Shown here: positions 6,001-64,000 of the stretch, piece after piece
Position numbering within the stretch: the stretch's first letter is position 1
How the letters are laid out: each line of letters starts with the position of its first letter
NCBI GenBank assembly: GCA_000004985.1
Contig: GG738865.1
Source of the DNA: Naegleria gruberi
Taxonomy: Eukaryota
Length of the DNA: 64,000 bases
Reading direction: 5' to 3' (one strand)
Position numbers and translations under genes: made by a program
Notes under the pieces: model-generated
What the model was told of the DNA's origin: nothing
Database searches by the model: none
The model's input: the letters and a program-made list of their open reading frames with translations, nothing else

Positions 6001-9000
6001 NNNNNNNNNNNNNNNNNNNNNNNNNNNNNNNNNNNNNNNNNNNNNNNNNNNNNNNNNNNNNNNNNNNNNNNNNNNNNNNNNNNNNNNNNNNNNNNNNNNN
6101 NNNNNNNNNNNNNNNNNNNNNNNNNNNNNNNNNNNNNNNNNNNNNNNNNNNNNNNNNNNNNNNNNNNNNNNNNNNNNNNNNNNNNNNNNNNNNNNNNNNN
6201 NNNNNNNNNNNNNNNNNNNNNNNNNNNNNNNNNNNNNNNNNNNNNNNNNNNNNNNNNNNNNNNNNNNNNNNNNNNNNNNNNNNNNNNNNNNNNNNNNNNN
6301 NNNNNNNNNNNNNNNNNNNNNNNNNNNNNNNNNNNNNNNNNNNNNNNNNNNNNNNNNNNNNNNNNNNNNNNNNNNNNNNNNNNNNNNNNNNNNNNNNNNN
6401 NNNNNNNNNNNNNNNNNNNNNNNNNNNNNNNNNNNNNNNNNNNNNNNNNNNNNNNNNNNNNNNNNNNNNNNNNNNNNNNNNNNNNNNNNNNNNNNNNNNN
6501 NNNNNNNNNNNNNNNNNNNNNNNNNNNNNNNNNNNNNNNNNNNNNNNNNNNNNNNNNNNNNNNNNNNNNNNNNNNNNNNNNNNNNNNNNNNNNNNNNNNN
6601 NNNNNNNNNNNNNNNNNNNNNNNNNNNNNNNNNNNNNNNNNNNNNNNNNNNNNNNNNNNNNNNNNNNNNNNNNNNNNNNNNNNNNNNNNNNNNNNNNNNN
6701 NNNNNNNNNNNNNNNNNNNNNNNNNNNNNNNNNNNNNNNNNNNNNNNNNNNNNNNNNNNNNNNNNNNNNNNNNNNNNNNNNNNNNNNNNNNNNNNNNNNN
6801 NNNNNNNNNNNNNNNNNNNNNNNNNNNNNNNNNNNNNNNNNNNNNNNNNNNNNNNNNNNNNNNNNNNNNNNNNNNNNNNNNNNNNNNNNNNNNNNNNNNN
6901 NNNNNNNNNNNNNNNNNNNNNNNNNNNNNNNNNNNNNNNNNNNNNNNNNNNNNNNNNNNNNNNNNNNNNNNNNNNNNNNNNNNNNNNNNNNNNNNNNNNN
7001 NNNNNNNNNNNNNNNNNNNNNNNNNNNNNNNNNNNNNNNNNNNNNNNNNNNNNNNNNNNNNNNNNNNNNNNNNNNNNNNNNNNNNNNNNNNNNNNNNNNN
7101 NNNNNNNNNNNNNNNNNNNNNNNNNNNNNNNNNNNNNNNNNNNNNNNNNNNNNNNNNNNNNNNNNNNNNNNNNNNNNNNNNNNNNNNNNNNNNNNNNNNN
7201 NNNNNNNNNNNNNNNNNNNNNNNNNNNNNNNNNNNNNNNNNNNNNNNNNNNNNNNNNNNNNNNNNNNNNNNNNNNNNNNNNNNNNNNNNNNNNNNNNNNN
7301 NNNNNNNNNNNNNNNNNNNNNNNNNNNNNNNNNNNNNNNNNNNNNNNNNNNNNNNNNNNNNNNNNNNNNNNNNNNNNNNNNNNNNNNNNNNNNNNNNNNN
7401 NNNNNNNNNNNNNNNNNNNNNNNNNNNNNNNNNNNNNNNNNNNNNNNNNNNNNNNNNNNNNNNNNNNNNNNNNNNNNNNNNNNNNNNNNNNNNNNNNNNN
7501 NNNNNNNNNNNNNNNNNNNNNNNNNNNNNNNNNNNNNNNNNNNNNNNNNNNNNNNNNNNNNNNNNNNNNNNNNNNNNNNNNNNNNNNNNNNNNNNNNNNN
7601 NNNNNNNNNNNNNNNNNNNNNNNNNNNNNNNNNNNNNNNNNNNNNNNNNNNNNNNNNNNNNNNNNNNNNNNNNNNNNNNNNNNNNNNNNNNNNNNNNNNN
7701 NNNNNNNNNNNNNNNNNNNNNNNNNNNNNNNNNNNNNNNNNNNNNNNNNNNNNNNNNNNNNNNNNNNNNNNNNNNNNNNNNNNNNNNNNNNNNNNNNNNN
7801 NNNNNNNNNNNNNNNNNNNNNNNNNNNNNNNNNNNNNNNNNNNNNNNNNNNNNNNNNNNNNNNNNNNNNNNNNNNNNNNNNNNNNNNNNNNNNNNNNNNN
7901 NNNNNNNNNNNNNNNNNNNNNNNNNNNNNNNNNNNNNNNNNNNNNNNNNNNNNNNNNNNNNNNNNNNNNNNNNNNNNNNNNNNNNNNNNNNNNNNNNNNN
8001 NNNNNNNNNNNNNNNNNNNNNNNNNNNNNNNNNNNNNNNNNNNNNNNNNNNNNNNNNNNNNNNNNNNNNNNNNNNNNNNNNNNNNNNNNNNNNNNNNNNN
8101 NNNNNNNNNNNNNNNNNNNNNNNNNNNNNNNNNNNNNNNNNNNNNNNNNNNNNNNNNNNNNNNNNNNNNNNNNNNNNNNNNNNNNNNNNNNNNNNNNNNN
8201 NNNNNNNNNNNNNNNNNNNNNNNNNNNNNNNNNNNNNNNNNNNNNNNNNNNNNNNNNNNNNNNNNNNNNNNNNNNNNNNNNNNNNNNNNNNNNNNNNNNN
8301 NNNNNNNNNNNNNNNNNNNNNNNNNNNNNNNNNNNNNNNNNNNNNNNNNNNNNNNNNNNNNNNNNNNNNNNNNNNNNNNNNNNNNNNNNNNNNNNNNNNN
8401 NNNNNNNNNNNNNNNNNNNNNNNNNNNNNNNNNNNNNNNNNNNNNNNNNNNNNNNNNNNNNNNNNNNNNNNNNNNNNNNNNNNNNNNNNNNNNNNNNNNN
8501 NNNNNNNNNNNNNNNNNNNNNNNNNNNNNNNNNNNNNNNNNNNNNNNNNNNNNNNNNNNNNNNNNNNNNNNNNNNNNNNNNNNNNNNNNNNNNNNNNNNN
8601 NNNNNNNNNNNNNNNNNNNNNNNNNNNNNNNNNNNNNNNNNNNNNNNNNNNNNNNNNNNNNNNNNNNNNNNNNNNNNNNNNNNNNNNNNNNNNNNNNNNN
8701 NNNNNNNNNNNNNNNNNNNNNNNNNNNNNNNNNNNNNNNNNNNNNNNNNNNNNNNNNNNNNNNNNNNNNNNNNNNNNNNNNNNNNNNNNNNNNNNNNNNN
8801 NNNNNNNNNNNNNNNNNNNNNNNNNNNNNNNNNNNNNNNNNNNNNNNNNNNNNNNNNNNNNNNNNNNNNNNNNNNNNNNNNNNNNNNNNNNNNNNNNNNN
8901 NNNNNNNNNNNNNNNNNNNNNNNNNNNNNNNNNNNNNNNNNNNNNNNNNNNNNNNNNNNNNNNNNNNNNNNNNNNNNNNNNNNNNNNNNNNNNNNNNNNN

Positions 9001-60218: not shown

Positions 60219-60219
60219 A

Positions 60220-61798
60220 TCAATTATACTATTTATTATCGCAATGATCATTAGTAATCACCATCATCAGTATGTAAATTGTGAATCATCATCATCATCT
60301 GTAACATCTACATCTTCATCAAATGATTCACAACAACAACAACAATATTTAGAAGAATTTAATATATTAAAAACATTAGATTCTAAAAATACAATTTTTC
60401 ATTATAAATTTACAATGAATAACATGACAAGTATGAATAATATTCAATATTTAACAAATAAATATAATTTAAATGAATTAAAATTAACATTTACAAGAGG
60501 AAGATATAATTATAAAGATTGGGGAATTTATGATAAAATTTCACCAAATGGTTTAACTTTACAAGTTAATTTTAAAAATATTCAAAATTTCCAAATATGG
60601 GATAATTTAGTAAATGAATTAAGTGGAATATTTTGTGCAAGTATTAATTTTTTAACTCAATATGAACAACGTAGAGTTTATAATAGTGGTATTGTAAATT
60701 ATTTAAATAATAATACTATATATGGTACTTTAAGTGAAGAAACAATTTGTACTGAAAATTTAACTCCTTTTAAATCAATTTTACCTTTTAGAGGTAATAT
60801 GGGATTAAGTTATTTATTAAATCCTAAATTTTTATTTAATAGTTTATATTTTAGTATGGATATTACTATTAATAGTAATAATAATATTATTTTAAATTTT
60901 TATAAAATTTCTAAAATTAATCAAGAAGATTTTAAATTTATTTTAAATAAGAAATTTAAATTAATTATTCCATATGGTAAAATAATTATAAATGATTATA
61001 TTAATCAATTAAATAATTTAAATGAATTAAAATCTAATTTTACTATTTATAATAATTATATTGAAAATAAAAAAATTAAAAAATCAACTATTTTAATTAA
61101 AAGATATCAATTAAATAATAAATTAATTACAGATTTAGAAATATTAAATAATAATATAAATGAAATTTGTTATTATGATGTAATACCATGGTATTTTAAA
61201 TCATTTATTCATACCTTAAAAGTAAATGATATTTCAATTCAAAATTTAAATTATTTAAATTTTATTAAAATTTTACCTCAAAAAGATAGAACAAATCCTT
61301 TAATTTTAAATTTATGTTTTAATTATTTAAAATTTATTAAAAATAATAATTTAAATAATACTATTACTAATAAATAATAATAATAATATTAAAATTAGTA
61401 TTGAATTTGAAAAGACATATTTAAAATATACAGAACATGCACCTGATGCCAATAGAGGTTTTGATTTAAGTAGTGCAATTATTACCACTAGAATTAATTC
61501 TAATATTAATTCTAATAATGAAATAATAGATTACAATGATTACAATGATTACAATGATAATAATGAACAAATATTATATAGTGATAGTTTATTAATTAGT
61601 TTACCTACACCTGATTTTAGTATGCCATATAATGTTATTACATTAACATGTACAATTATTGTTTTATTCTTTGGATCAATGTTTAATTTATTAATTAGAA
61701 GATTTAATTCACGTTATGAATCCGATCAATCAAAATCTTTATTAGAACGTTTAATTTCTTTTATTAGTAAGATTTTTAAAAAGAATAAACAAGATTAA
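60220..61798 (+). CDS. pigT: GPI transamidase component PIG-T/Gpi16 orthologue. It is 5'-partial because it runs into the N gap. The frame is interrupted by a 1-nt indel in an (AAT)n run: segment A is 60220-61377 in frame 1, segment B is 61355-61798 in the +1 frame, and the stop is TAA at 61796-61798.
   Basis: Seen in sequence: the ORF at 60244-61377 stays open upstream to 60220, the first readable codon after the gap. There it encodes SIILFIIAMIIS, the hydrophobic core of a signal peptide, so the true start lies inside the gap. The translation carries motifs I recognise from human PIG-T: LSGIFCAS(I/L)NF; (V/I)CTENLTP(W/F)K..LP...GLS.LL, including the conserved Cys that I recall as Cys182 of human PIG-T, the partner of the PIG-K disulfide; and (V/I)PWY(L/F)..(Y/F)(V/I)HTL. 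Downstream, the +1 frame at 61355-61798 encodes NNNNNIKISIEFEKTYLKYTEHAPDANRGF...[43 protein letters not shown]...KNKQD*. This matches the human C-terminus ..[24 protein letters not shown]...[38 protein letters not shown], including the single C-terminal transmembrane helix. The two frames overlap across 61355-61377. Deleting one A from 'aaa' at 61372-61374 joins them as ...TITNNNNNNIKISIEFEK. Confidence 0.85.
60286..60345 (+). repeat. Low-complexity coding repeats near the PIG-T N-terminus: a (TCA)n Ser run at 60286-60300 and a (CAA)5 Gln run at 60331-60345
   Basis: Direct reading: 'tcatcatcatcatct' and 'caacaacaacaacaa'. They encode SSSSS and QQQQQ within the insert ...NHHHQYVNCESSSSSVTSTSSSNDSQQQQQYLEEF that sits between the signal peptide and the conserved domain. 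Confidence 0.8.
61369..61387 (+). repeat. (AAT)n trinucleotide microsatellite, imperfect ('aataaataataataataat'), containing the apparent frameshift within pigT
   Basis: Direct reading: aat aaa taa taa taa taa t. It would be a perfect (aat)6-7 run if one A were removed. It would encode poly-Asn in the restored frame. Confidence 0.8.
61529..61564 (+). repeat. In-frame 9-bp tandem repeat (gattacaat) x3 plus a degenerate fourth unit (gataataat). It encodes DYNDYNDYNDNN in the PIG-T lumenal tail.
   Basis: Direct reading of 'gattacaatgattacaatgattacaatgataataat', in the frame of pigT segment B. Confidence 0.8.
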
Positions 61799-62012
61799 AT
61801 TTTATAAAATTTCAATGTATATATTTATAGTATTTAAAAATAATACAAGAATACAAGAATAACATATACCTAGTAGTAATGGTAATGGTAGTAAGAAATA
61901 TAAAGCCTTTACCACAAAATGTGCGAGAAGCCAATGTTGGTTTGTGTTGGTTGGAGGGAAAATGATATTGTACTTTTTGGCGCCAAATTTAAATTCAACC
62001 ACTACAAAAAAA
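61799..62012 (+). promoter_or_regulatory. Intergenic spacer of about 215 bp. It must hold both the pigT 3'UTR/polyadenylation region and the IFT140 promoter and 5'UTR. There is an A-run at 62005-62012 immediately before the ATG.
   Basis: The spacer lies between the pigT stop (61796-61798) and the IFT140 ATG (62013). It is very AT-rich apart from a comparatively GC-richer block at about 61915-61990 (aatgtgcgagaagccaatgttggtttgtgttggttggagggaaaatg...ggcgccaaa). Short direct repeats are present: 'tacaagaatacaagaat' and 'taatggtaatggta'. The A-run-then-ATG start context ('acaaaaaaaatg') is typical of AT-rich eukaryotes. I cannot map any specific motif. Confidence 0.3.
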
Positions 62013-62456
62013 ATGTCTTCTACACTTCCACCTTCTGCCAGTTCTTCATCTTTATACAATATTGGATTAGTCACTGGAACATTTGGAAATAGTGTAATAT
62101 ATGAAAATTTTACATTACAAGGAACAACCAATAACAAGTTCCATTCTCCTGTTTGTAGTCAGTGGCATCGTAAATATCCACTATTGGCTATTTCTAAGGC
62201 TAATGGTGTAGTTTCAGTGTATGACGATCACGGAGAAAAAAACGAAAGAGTTAATTTATCTAGATCATCTAATTGTACAGCTATCGGGTGGCATCCTACA
62301 AAATTTATTCTTTGTACAGGTTGGAAAGATGGTGCCATTCTTTTATACAATGATAAAGACCCTCATAATCAAAAGGAAATTGAATTGGAAGAACATGGTA
62401 AAATTTGTGCTATTAAATGGTCTCCTGATGGTGAGAGATTAATAACTGCTCATCAA
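62013..62456 (+). CDS. IFT140: IFT140-like intraflagellar transport protein (IFT-A complex WD40/TPR subunit), exon 1 of 148 codons. An alternative in-frame ATG at 61962 cannot be excluded.
   Basis: The translation is MSSTLPPSASSSSLYNIGLVTGTFGNSVIYENF...FHSPVCSQWHRKYPLLAISKANGVVSVYDDHGE...CTAIGWHPTKFILCTGWKDGAILLYNDKDPHNQ...ICAIKWSPDGERLITAHQ. These are WD repeats whose spacing and residues match what I recall of the human IFT140 N-terminus (..FISWHPVHPFLAVAY.., ..[31 protein letters not shown].., ..ITVLRWSPSGNCLLSGD..). The exon ends with a complete codon, CAA (Q), immediately before 'gtaagt'. The track's listed ORF start at 61944 is a GTG, not an ATG. Confidence 0.75.
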
Positions 62457-62542
62457 GTAAGTTGTTTCTTCTTCCTCAATAATAATAATTCTAATCGTTT
62501 CTTTAATACAAAAATATGAACAATTATTCTTAATAATAATAG
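62457..62542 (+). other. Spliceosomal intron, 86 bp, GT-AG, phase 0, within the IFT140-like gene
   Basis: The 5' end is 'gtaagt' at 62457-62462. The 3' end is 'ttcttaataataatag' with AG at 62541-62542. The intron is extremely AT-rich. Reading through it gives TGA at 62517-62519, which is exactly where the track's 191-aa ORF ends. Downstream frame is closed by TAG at 62540-62542 and opens at 62543. Joining the exons gives ...LITAHQ|DGNIGIWKFEGG, a canonical WD-repeat continuation. Confidence 0.8.
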
Positions 62543-64000
62543 GATGGTAATATTGGTATTTGGAAATTTGAAGGAGGAAAACTCAAACACATTTTGAACT
62601 ATGAAAATCCTGGAAATGTTGTGGAAACACCAGAACAAATTGTATTTAAAACTAATAGAGATCCATCAACAGAATTGTCTTGGATTTTCTTTGTTGGTGT
62701 TTCTACAGGACAAGGTTCTAAAATTGTTGTAGGTGTTGCCGATGATTTGGCAGAAAATTTACAAAAATCACAAAATGGTACTGTTAGATATGAATCACTT
62801 AATGATACTGGTATTCAATTTAATGGATCTCAAATTATGAGTGTATTATTCCATAGAGAAAAATCTCAATTAGTTTTATTGACAGATACAGCTTTATTAG
62901 TTGTTTATAAAATCAATGCTTCGATTAGTAAGCCTAATGAAATTGGAATGAAACAAGTAATGAGAACTAAAATTAGTATTTCTAATAGTACAGGTGCAAC
63001 AATTAAAACATTATGGGTTGGATCAGGTGTTATTGCAACCATTACAAGTAATGAGAGTATGGTAAGAGTTTGGAATTTAGAAACAGATGAAAATACAACA
63101 CTCATGTTGAACTCTCCTCTAGAACATGAAGTTGTCATTTCATTTTCATTCAATCCTCAAAAGAGAGCCATTGTTGCTGGTACAAGTACAGGTAGATTAG
63201 TATTTTGGGTTTTTACTGGTAATCAAAAGACAAGAGATCAATGGGAAAAGTATGGAGAATATTCTTTACCAAGTAGAGCTTCTGTTAATATGGTTAGTTG
63301 GGGATGTGGTGAAAAGGTTTTATGTTATGGTAGTGGAGAGAATAATGATATTGAAATTTTACAAGAAACAAGTTTCAAGAAGAGAATGAAGAATAATACC
63401 ATTGCCATTCAAAATTCTTTAAACACAGTAGTAATTGGAAAACCAAACTTTGCACCAGGAGAAGATAAAATTCCACCAAGAACAATCAAAACAGGTATTA
63501 ATATTAGAGATTTTGATCATACAGATACTCATATCATTGTTTCAAATAATAGCGTTTTAGAATTATTTGAAACTAGAGGTACAGAATTAATTAGAAAAGC
63601 AGAAGCATTTGAAATTCCATCAATTTGTGTTGGTTTACACTCTGAAAGTATCTTTGTTCCAACTAATGGATCAGTTAATTCTAATCCAAGAATTGAAGTA
63701 TACAGTTTCAAAGGTATTAAGAAACAAACTTTACAATTAAGTGAAGAAGAAGGAGTTCCAATTTGTATTGATGTCCAAAGTGATTTTATTACAATTGCAA
63801 CAAATACTAATCATGTTAGAATGTGGCATGTTTTGGGAAGAGAAGCAAAACCAGTTTCAGTTTCAAAGAGAGTTTTTGATAATAATGAATCAGATTCATC
63901 TGAAAAGACTTATATTTCAAGTGTAAAATGTAATTGTAATGGTACAATGTTAGCTTTACTTGGTAAATTGAAGAATGAAGGTGAAATGGATTTACTTACA
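62543..64000 (+). CDS. IFT140: IFT140-like protein, exon 2. It is 3'-partial: 486 codons are open to the end of the window and the CDS continues beyond it.
   Basis: The frame is open from 62543 to 64000 with no stop codon. The translation is DGNIGIWKFEGGKLKHILNYENPGNVVETPEQIVFKTNRDPSTELSWIFFVGVSTGQGSKIVVGVADDLAENLQKSQNGTVRYESLNDTGIQFNGSQIMSVLFHREKSQLVLLTDTALLVVYKINASISKPNEIGMKQVMRTKISISNSTGATIKTLWVGSGVIATITSNESMVRVWNLETDENTTL...SFNPQKRAIVAGTSTGRLVFWVFTGNQ... These blocks align with human IFT140 as I recall it: [48 protein letters not shown]..., ...[29 protein letters not shown], ...[24 protein letters not shown]. All overlapping ORFs in the track (62453-62638 minus, 62905-63153 minus, 63529-63711 minus, 63741-63926 plus) fall in other frames of this exon. 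Confidence 0.8.

Follow-up and report, generated by a model that had tools for sequence, protein, structure and literature searches.

Does the gene for PIG-T, a subunit of the GPI transamidase, carry a real frameshift in Naegleria gruberi NEG-M, or is its reading frame interrupted only in the published sequence? The question arises at the end of a window of 64,000 nt (contig GG738865.1), in which positions 1-60218 are all N and the readable part, 60219-64000 (24.8% GC), harbours two genes on the + strand, PIG-T followed by IFT140. An earlier note, made from the letters of the window, described a PIG-T frame broken within an (AAT)n microsatellite and favoured a base-calling error in the assembly.

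Two open frames and the region where they meet

Roughly the N-terminal two-thirds of PIG-T/Gpi16 are encoded by 385 codons on the + strand (60220..61374) in frame 0, the frame of the ATG at 60244, which is already open at the first readable codon (60220). This frame ends at a premature TAA (61375..61377), followed in the same frame by TAA TAA TAA TAT TAA; across the break it reads ACT ATT ACT AAT AAA TAA TAA TAA TAA TAT TAA. The C-terminal third of the protein lies on the same strand in the +1 frame (61355..61798, with the stop codon TAA at 61796-98), which from 61355 specifies 147 residues (product NNNNNIKISIEFEKTYLKY...), including the ISIEFEK...HAPDANRGFD block, a 16-residue motif and the C-terminal transmembrane segment. 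The coordinates of both frames agree with those of the earlier note. Its identification of the gene is equally borne out: against a cut-off of 27 bits, the Pfam profile Gpi16 (PF04113) scores 141.5 bits with the N-terminal part (E 4e-41) and 139.6 bits with the C-terminal part (E 1.6e-40), the latter covering positions 453-566 of the 571-position profile.

The gene is extremely AT-rich (16.9% GC, versus 30-34% for the neighbouring IFT140). Stop codons are absent from the 385 + 139 correct-frame codons and number 9-76 in the wrong frames; for the N-terminal part, there are none in frame 0 versus 47 and 76 in the remaining two frames. With a random-codon stop probability of 0.105 at 16.9% GC, the chance of an open frame is about 8e-8 for 147 codons and about 3e-19 for 385 codons, and both frames are thus open far beyond what the local composition would give by chance.

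The two open frames overlap by 25 nt (61353..61377, + strand). Deletion of any single base within this overlap restores a full-length ORF and, therefore, the frame shift must lie there, inside a period-3 TAA/AAT array that Tandem Repeats Finder (TRF) delimits at 61338-61392 (3% indels). The extra base is most parsimoniously placed in the AAA at 61372..61374 (+ strand), where dropping one A makes AAT-A-(AAT)5 a perfect (AAT)6, spanning 61369-61387 in the current numbering, and yields a protein with the junction ...TITNNNNNNIKISIEFEK... (in fuller form, ...NLCFNYLKFIKNNNLNNTITNNNNNNIKISIEFEKTYLKY...), precisely the repair put forward in the earlier note. The score of the repaired protein with PF04113 rises to 273.6 bits (E 4e-81), in a single aligned stretch (residues 284-510) that runs across the junction. 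As deposited, PIG-T does not form one continuous frame; it does so only when one base is removed.

At its 5' end, the frame is open up to base 60220, where it reads SIILFIIAMIIS..., resembling the core of a signal peptide, and everything upstream is N. The true start codon and the signal peptide are probably missing from the readable sequence.

Orthologues and constraint

The PIG-T gene in the window occupies the orthologous, ancestral locus and is not a stray copy, given that N. lovaniensis has PIG-T, UCH and IFT140 linked within 8 kb and that PIG-T adjoins IFT140 here. IFT140 begins 206 bp 3' of PIG-T, and the section in the window covers its two N-terminal beta-propellers (PF23383, 1.6e-52; PF23385, 1.6e-29). 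It is interrupted by one intron (62457-62542, 86 nt, GTAAGT...TAG), and its frame is otherwise clean to the end of the window. The IFT140 proteins of N. gruberi and N. lovaniensis are 78-79% identical and the intron occurs at the same place in both (tblastn, locus L004).

Single uninterrupted PIG-T ORFs occur in N. lovaniensis (1749 nt), in Willaertia magna (1281 nt) and in the metagenomic heterolobosean P0001 (1440 nt), and the frameshift is thus retained in none of these three orthologues. The identity with the Willaertia protein is only 58%, and in a protein homology search that evidently leaves out close relatives of the window, and that returned neither the N. gruberi model nor the 78%-identical IFT140 of N. 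lovaniensis, heterolobosean matches reached at most 49% identity. As sources of the DNA, Dictyostelium was rejected, since the best matches are from Heterolobosea and IFT140 is present, and so were Tetramitus jugosus, whose GC content is 41%, and Willaertia, given the 58% identity. Human PIG-T (from the GPI-transamidase structures 7WLD, 7W72 and 8IMY) could be aligned with the repaired protein (E 1e-49), and in an alignment of 10 species, the latter keeps all of the invariant columns (60/60), 24 of which are downstream of the break. Among these 60 are the cysteine of CTENL, the HAPDANRGFD block and the 16-residue motif mentioned above. A PDFSMPYNV motif is followed by a hydrophobic stretch of 20 residues, as expected for the C-terminal transmembrane helix. 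As the family is understood, the sequence downstream of the break would be required for PIG-T function.

The junction itself falls in a linker of variable length between LNLCFN and I-x-ISIEFEK in the same alignment, and the Naegleria orthologues of N. fowleri and N. lovaniensis have linkers about as long as the repaired one (NLCFNLTSFISDKNSGAKNGLSTSIQVSIKFEK). After repair, the protein is a full-length match to the PIG-T/Gpi16 family as known from human (7WLD, 7W72, 8IMX, 8IMY) and yeast (9UB7) structures; it differs from the family in that the frame is broken as deposited, in that the N-terminus is hidden by the run of Ns, and in low-complexity inserts in the linker, Asn-rich and (DYN)3, that are specific to its lineage. 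At positions where the other nine sequences agree, N. gruberi shows one private change (V176I, conservative), as compared to eight in W. magna and three in P0001. The gene is not decaying and shows no relaxed constraint. With a single lesion, no relaxation of constraint and intact orthologues, the break is either an artefact or very recent.

The deposited gene model

The locus is represented in public databases by NAEGRDRAFT_67130 (EFC45008.1; XP_002677752.1; UniProt D2VE30), a "predicted protein" of 249 aa whose scaffold is 820,293 bp long; it came up in a search of 1.84 billion representative sequences. On the + strand, the model consists of exon 1 (60424..60808; MTSMNN...RGNMGL), which begins at an internal Met, a fake intron (60809..61433; GTTATT...ATACAG) of 625 nt (1 mod 3) with a GC content of 10%, and exon 2 (61434..61798; K-HAPDANRG...KNKQD). 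Splicing 60424-60808 to 61434-61798 gives the deposited 249-aa protein exactly. Along with the frameshift, the fake intron discards 208 conserved Gpi16 codons, and the columns inside it that are invariant amongst the 10 PIG-T sequences include P251, P323, Y325, H331, T332, L333, R357, F396 and L401. The model is wrong, and the 249-aa chimera has entered RefSeq and UniProt. The earlier note had foreseen that automated annotation would mis-model the gene, either as two ORFs or with a fake mini-intron; a fake intron there is, but with 625 nt, it is not a mini-intron.

The start of the model at an internal Met fits poor coverage and hints that the sequence truly ends near 60219. We found no mention of NAEGRDRAFT_67130 or of a Naegleria GPI transamidase in the literature.

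Look-ups for a further version of the locus gave no match. The 377-aa ORF was not found by exact look-up, nor were 10 conjectured products (ORFs and repaired proteins, among them variants with (AAT)5 and (AAT)7). A contig look-up for the deposited protein P0124 (EFC45008.1) and two metagenome scans, one by protein patterns and one by a DNA pattern that covered the tract, returned no independent copy of the locus. Abundant RNA-seq data for NEG-M are on record, more than 829 million 75-bp paired reads (Kennard et al. 2025, as cited in bioRxiv 10.64898/2026.08.18.745565).

Origin of the extra base

The most likely cause of the extra A in the reference is, in our judgement, an indel error in the sequencing or assembly consensus, and we infer that the base is an error rather than a real allele. 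The lesion is a change of one nt, not of a whole unit, in a trinucleotide repeat within DNA of 16.9% GC; conservation is strong in both halves of the gene, and the alignment of the repaired protein continues in one stretch over the junction. Furthermore, readable sequence starts merely 1.15 kb upstream of the break, inside PIG-T, although the argument from low coverage near a contig end is weak because the 60-kb run of Ns may mark a real boundary or gap in the scaffold or else reflect masking of the window. Against an error speaks the adjoining 1.9 kb of IFT140 coding sequence, which contains no frame error. Moreover, indels are far rarer in a Sanger consensus than in those from 454, nanopore or CLR reads. 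An argument from homopolymer errors is, therefore, weaker than the earlier note implied, since the NEG-M assembly (JGI; 40.9 Mb, 35% GC) is a Sanger assembly (PMC9928731, Table 1). It is well documented that consensus indels and collapsed alleles in draft assemblies give rise to apparent frameshifts (PMC12007338, PMC8445201). The present case resembles those reports in the single-base indel in low-complexity sequence, the splitting of a conserved gene, the split genes or introns invented by the predictor and the intact orthologues; it differs in that the reports mainly concern long-read or mosaic diploid assemblies, whereas N. gruberi was sequenced in the 8x Sanger era and the error is here presumed.

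If so, the locus would be the single-exon orthologous PIG-T gene of NEG-M, into whose Sanger consensus one spurious base was introduced, most simply an A in the AAT-A-(AAT)5 at 61372-74, in a low-complexity linker of 17% GC that varies in length between species. Such a base could have arisen where bases were miscounted in AT-rich reads of low coverage, or where two alleles with different repeats were merged into one mosaic consensus. The living cell would then carry (AAT)6 and make a normal, full-length PIG-T (...TITNNNNNNIKISIEFEK...), whose luminal domain runs uninterrupted into the C-terminal transmembrane helix, and the gene predictor would have hidden the artefact behind the 625-nt pseudo-intron, giving the 249-aa chimera.

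A genuine defective allele is a serious rival to a consensus error, possible but clearly the less likely of the two. The extra A would be real, present on one haplotype of a heterozygous NEG-M or arisen in axenic culture over decades; the defective allele would be the one captured in the haploid consensus, and cells would stay alive through an intact allele or by tolerating the loss of GPI anchors. This is plausible since Naegleria is reported to be mainly diploid and heterozygous, with some variation in ploidy (PMC9928731), and it would account for the clean IFT140 coding sequence next to the gene and be in line with the usual accuracy of a Sanger consensus. Microsatellite tracts are generally mutation hotspots, and a lone, very recent lesion in a constrained gene is what a recessive loss-of-function allele would look like. 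However, slippage normally extends a repeat by entire 3-nt units and not by one base, and we estimate the prior for capturing a heterozygous loss-of-function allele in any one gene at only ~1%. It is very unlikely that the locus is an old or redundant pseudogene, with the function supplied by another copy or dispensable. The deposited sequence indeed cannot be translated as one ORF, and its GC content is far below that of its neighbour, but there is only one lesion, both frames are kept open against the odds calculated above, conserved sites show no surplus of private substitutions and the ancestral neighbourhood has been retained; the functional orthologue of W. magna is just as AT-rich (16.0% GC). 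A second, diverged N. gruberi-like PIG-T was not found among 1.84 billion representative sequences, where a near-identical copy would share the same cluster.

Mechanisms that would leave the extra A in place and bypass it in expression fare no better. Programmed +1 frameshifting appears highly improbable. Naegleria ribosomes, with the extra A in the mRNA, would pass AAA-UAA by slipping one base while the P site is occupied by the Lys codon AAA and the A site by UAA, then continue with AAU AAU and produce a full-length PIG-T (...TITNK-NNNN-IKISIEFEK...), as at the AAA-TAR sites of Euplotes. To our knowledge, +1 recoding at AAA-TAR is unreported outside the euplotid ciliates. The shift that is needed is indeed +1, the predicted product is as long as the repaired protein, and frame 0 ends in AAA-TAA (AAT AAA TAA, 61369-77), with the downstream ORF in +1, which matches the 5'-AAA-TAR-3' of Euplotes (PMC4759687, PMC10235951). 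Nonetheless, this motif carries no independent information, since any A put into an (AAT)n read in the AAT phase makes AAT-AAA-TAA: in the heterolobosean N. gruberi, it is a by-product of one A in the repeat, and unlike a conserved recoding site, it has no counterpart in the relatives (3/3). Four tandem in-frame TAA codons at and after the site would favour termination, and the altered termination of euplotids is linked to UGA reassignment. Even less credence, next to none, can be given to an unconventional or very short intron that removes 1 (mod 3) bases near the junction. Genes of N. gruberi do have introns, such as the one in IFT140. We enumerated every GT/GC-AG and AT-AC pair that leaves an open frame in 61200-61470 and found no acceptable intron of the GT-AG, GC-AG or AT-AC type joining the frames. 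The frame is restored by just two GT-AG pairs, 61222-61414 and 61316-61457, each at the cost of the invariant ISIEFEKTYLKYTEHAPDANRG block, so that the claim of the earlier note that no GT...AG splice repairs the break holds. No GC-AG pair restores the frame. AT-AC pairs are plentiful, as expected in DNA of 17% GC, but they have no U12 donor consensus, would cost conserved residues or are implausibly short (22-58 nt). Moreover, PIG-T orthologues are intronless at the junction. Two further ideas were set aside. Transcriptional slippage was discounted as improbable, the run of As being only 3 nt long. A PIG-T made of two polypeptides is, in our view, not credible: no ATG occurs in the +1 ORF before that of MPYNV, immediately ahead of the transmembrane helix, and a signal peptide would be absent from the C-terminal fragment.

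The finding is ordinary: the published reference genome most likely contains a one-base artefact or else records a single null allele. Obligatory frameshifting in the style of Euplotes, if true, would occur in a heterolobosean with the standard genetic code. If the extra A were real and homozygous, which is unlikely, the axenic strain would lack a functional GPI-transamidase subunit or would have to recode it. The main value lies in curation, as the public N. gruberi PIG-T record should be corrected: a one-base correction, or a frameshift annotation, would give a normal PIG-T (at least 525 aa). Reconstructions of early eukaryotic gene content draw on N. gruberi NEG-M as their heterolobosean reference genome, and with a chimera that lacks 208 conserved residues standing for its PIG-T (XP_002677752.1/D2VE30), surveys of GPI-transamidase presence, absence and orthology will score the subunit as partial or odd in this organism.

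Readable sequence and the PIG-T termini

The window consists of N throughout positions 1-60218 (60,218 bases), and only 3,782 bases are readable; the N run may be a scaffold start, a gap or masking. The PIG-T gene (60220-61798, plus strand), encoding the PIG-T/Gpi16 subunit of the GPI transamidase, has a reading frame that stays open to the very edge of this N run, so that the readable part probably lacks both the start codon and the signal peptide. Two segments of the window agree exactly with the deposited N. gruberi protein (NAEGRDRAFT_67130), which the representative search recovered. A separate homologous-protein search recovered neither this protein nor N. lovaniensis IFT140 (78% identical), and a lack of close hits in that search is thus no sign of novelty.

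The W. magna PIG-T model (ABK040_013333; P0004; 426 amino acids), located at 6001-7281 of the W. magna locus L003, starts with the residues MESINTYK and does not include the signal-peptide region present in its relatives. It carries eight private changes at columns of the 10-sequence PIG-T alignment that are invariant among the other nine sequences. This model may be 5′-truncated, or it may be a divergent or low-quality model.

A 9-bp tandem repeat, GATTACAAT (4.2 copies; 93% matches), lies in-frame within the N. gruberi PIG-T gene at 61529-61566. Its product, (DYN)3-4, is located within a lineage-specific insertion of a variable PIG-T loop; this insertion is absent from the compared PIG-T sequences of N. 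lovaniensis, W. magna and a metagenomic heterolobosean (P0001).

The neighbouring IFT140 gene and local gene order

The N-terminal part of IFT140 occupies 62004-64000 on the plus strand. Exon 1 (62004-62456) is separated from exon 2 (62543 to the end of the window) by an 86-nt phase-zero intron (62457-62542; GTAAGT...TAG), and the N. lovaniensis gene has an intron at the homologous position. This part is 78-79% identical to N. lovaniensis IFT140 (N. lovaniensis locus L004, 3394-1461, minus strand) and has no frame errors.

Microsynteny around PIG-T is kept but rearranged. The order is IFT140(-), UCH(-), PIG-T(+) in N. lovaniensis (L004 1-7749) and PIG-T(+), UCH(+) in W. magna (L003 6001-9443). 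In the N. gruberi window, IFT140(+) comes immediately after PIG-T(+), and UCH does not intervene.

Base composition

The neighbouring PIG-T and IFT140 genes contrast strongly in GC content. PIG-T has 16.9% GC and is thus poorer in GC than even the non-coding DNA beside it, with 19.8% in the intron of IFT140 and 27.8% in the intergenic spacer. The IFT140 exons have 30-34%. The PIG-T gene of W. magna is comparably extreme (16.0%), unlike that of N. lovaniensis, where the GC content is 35%.
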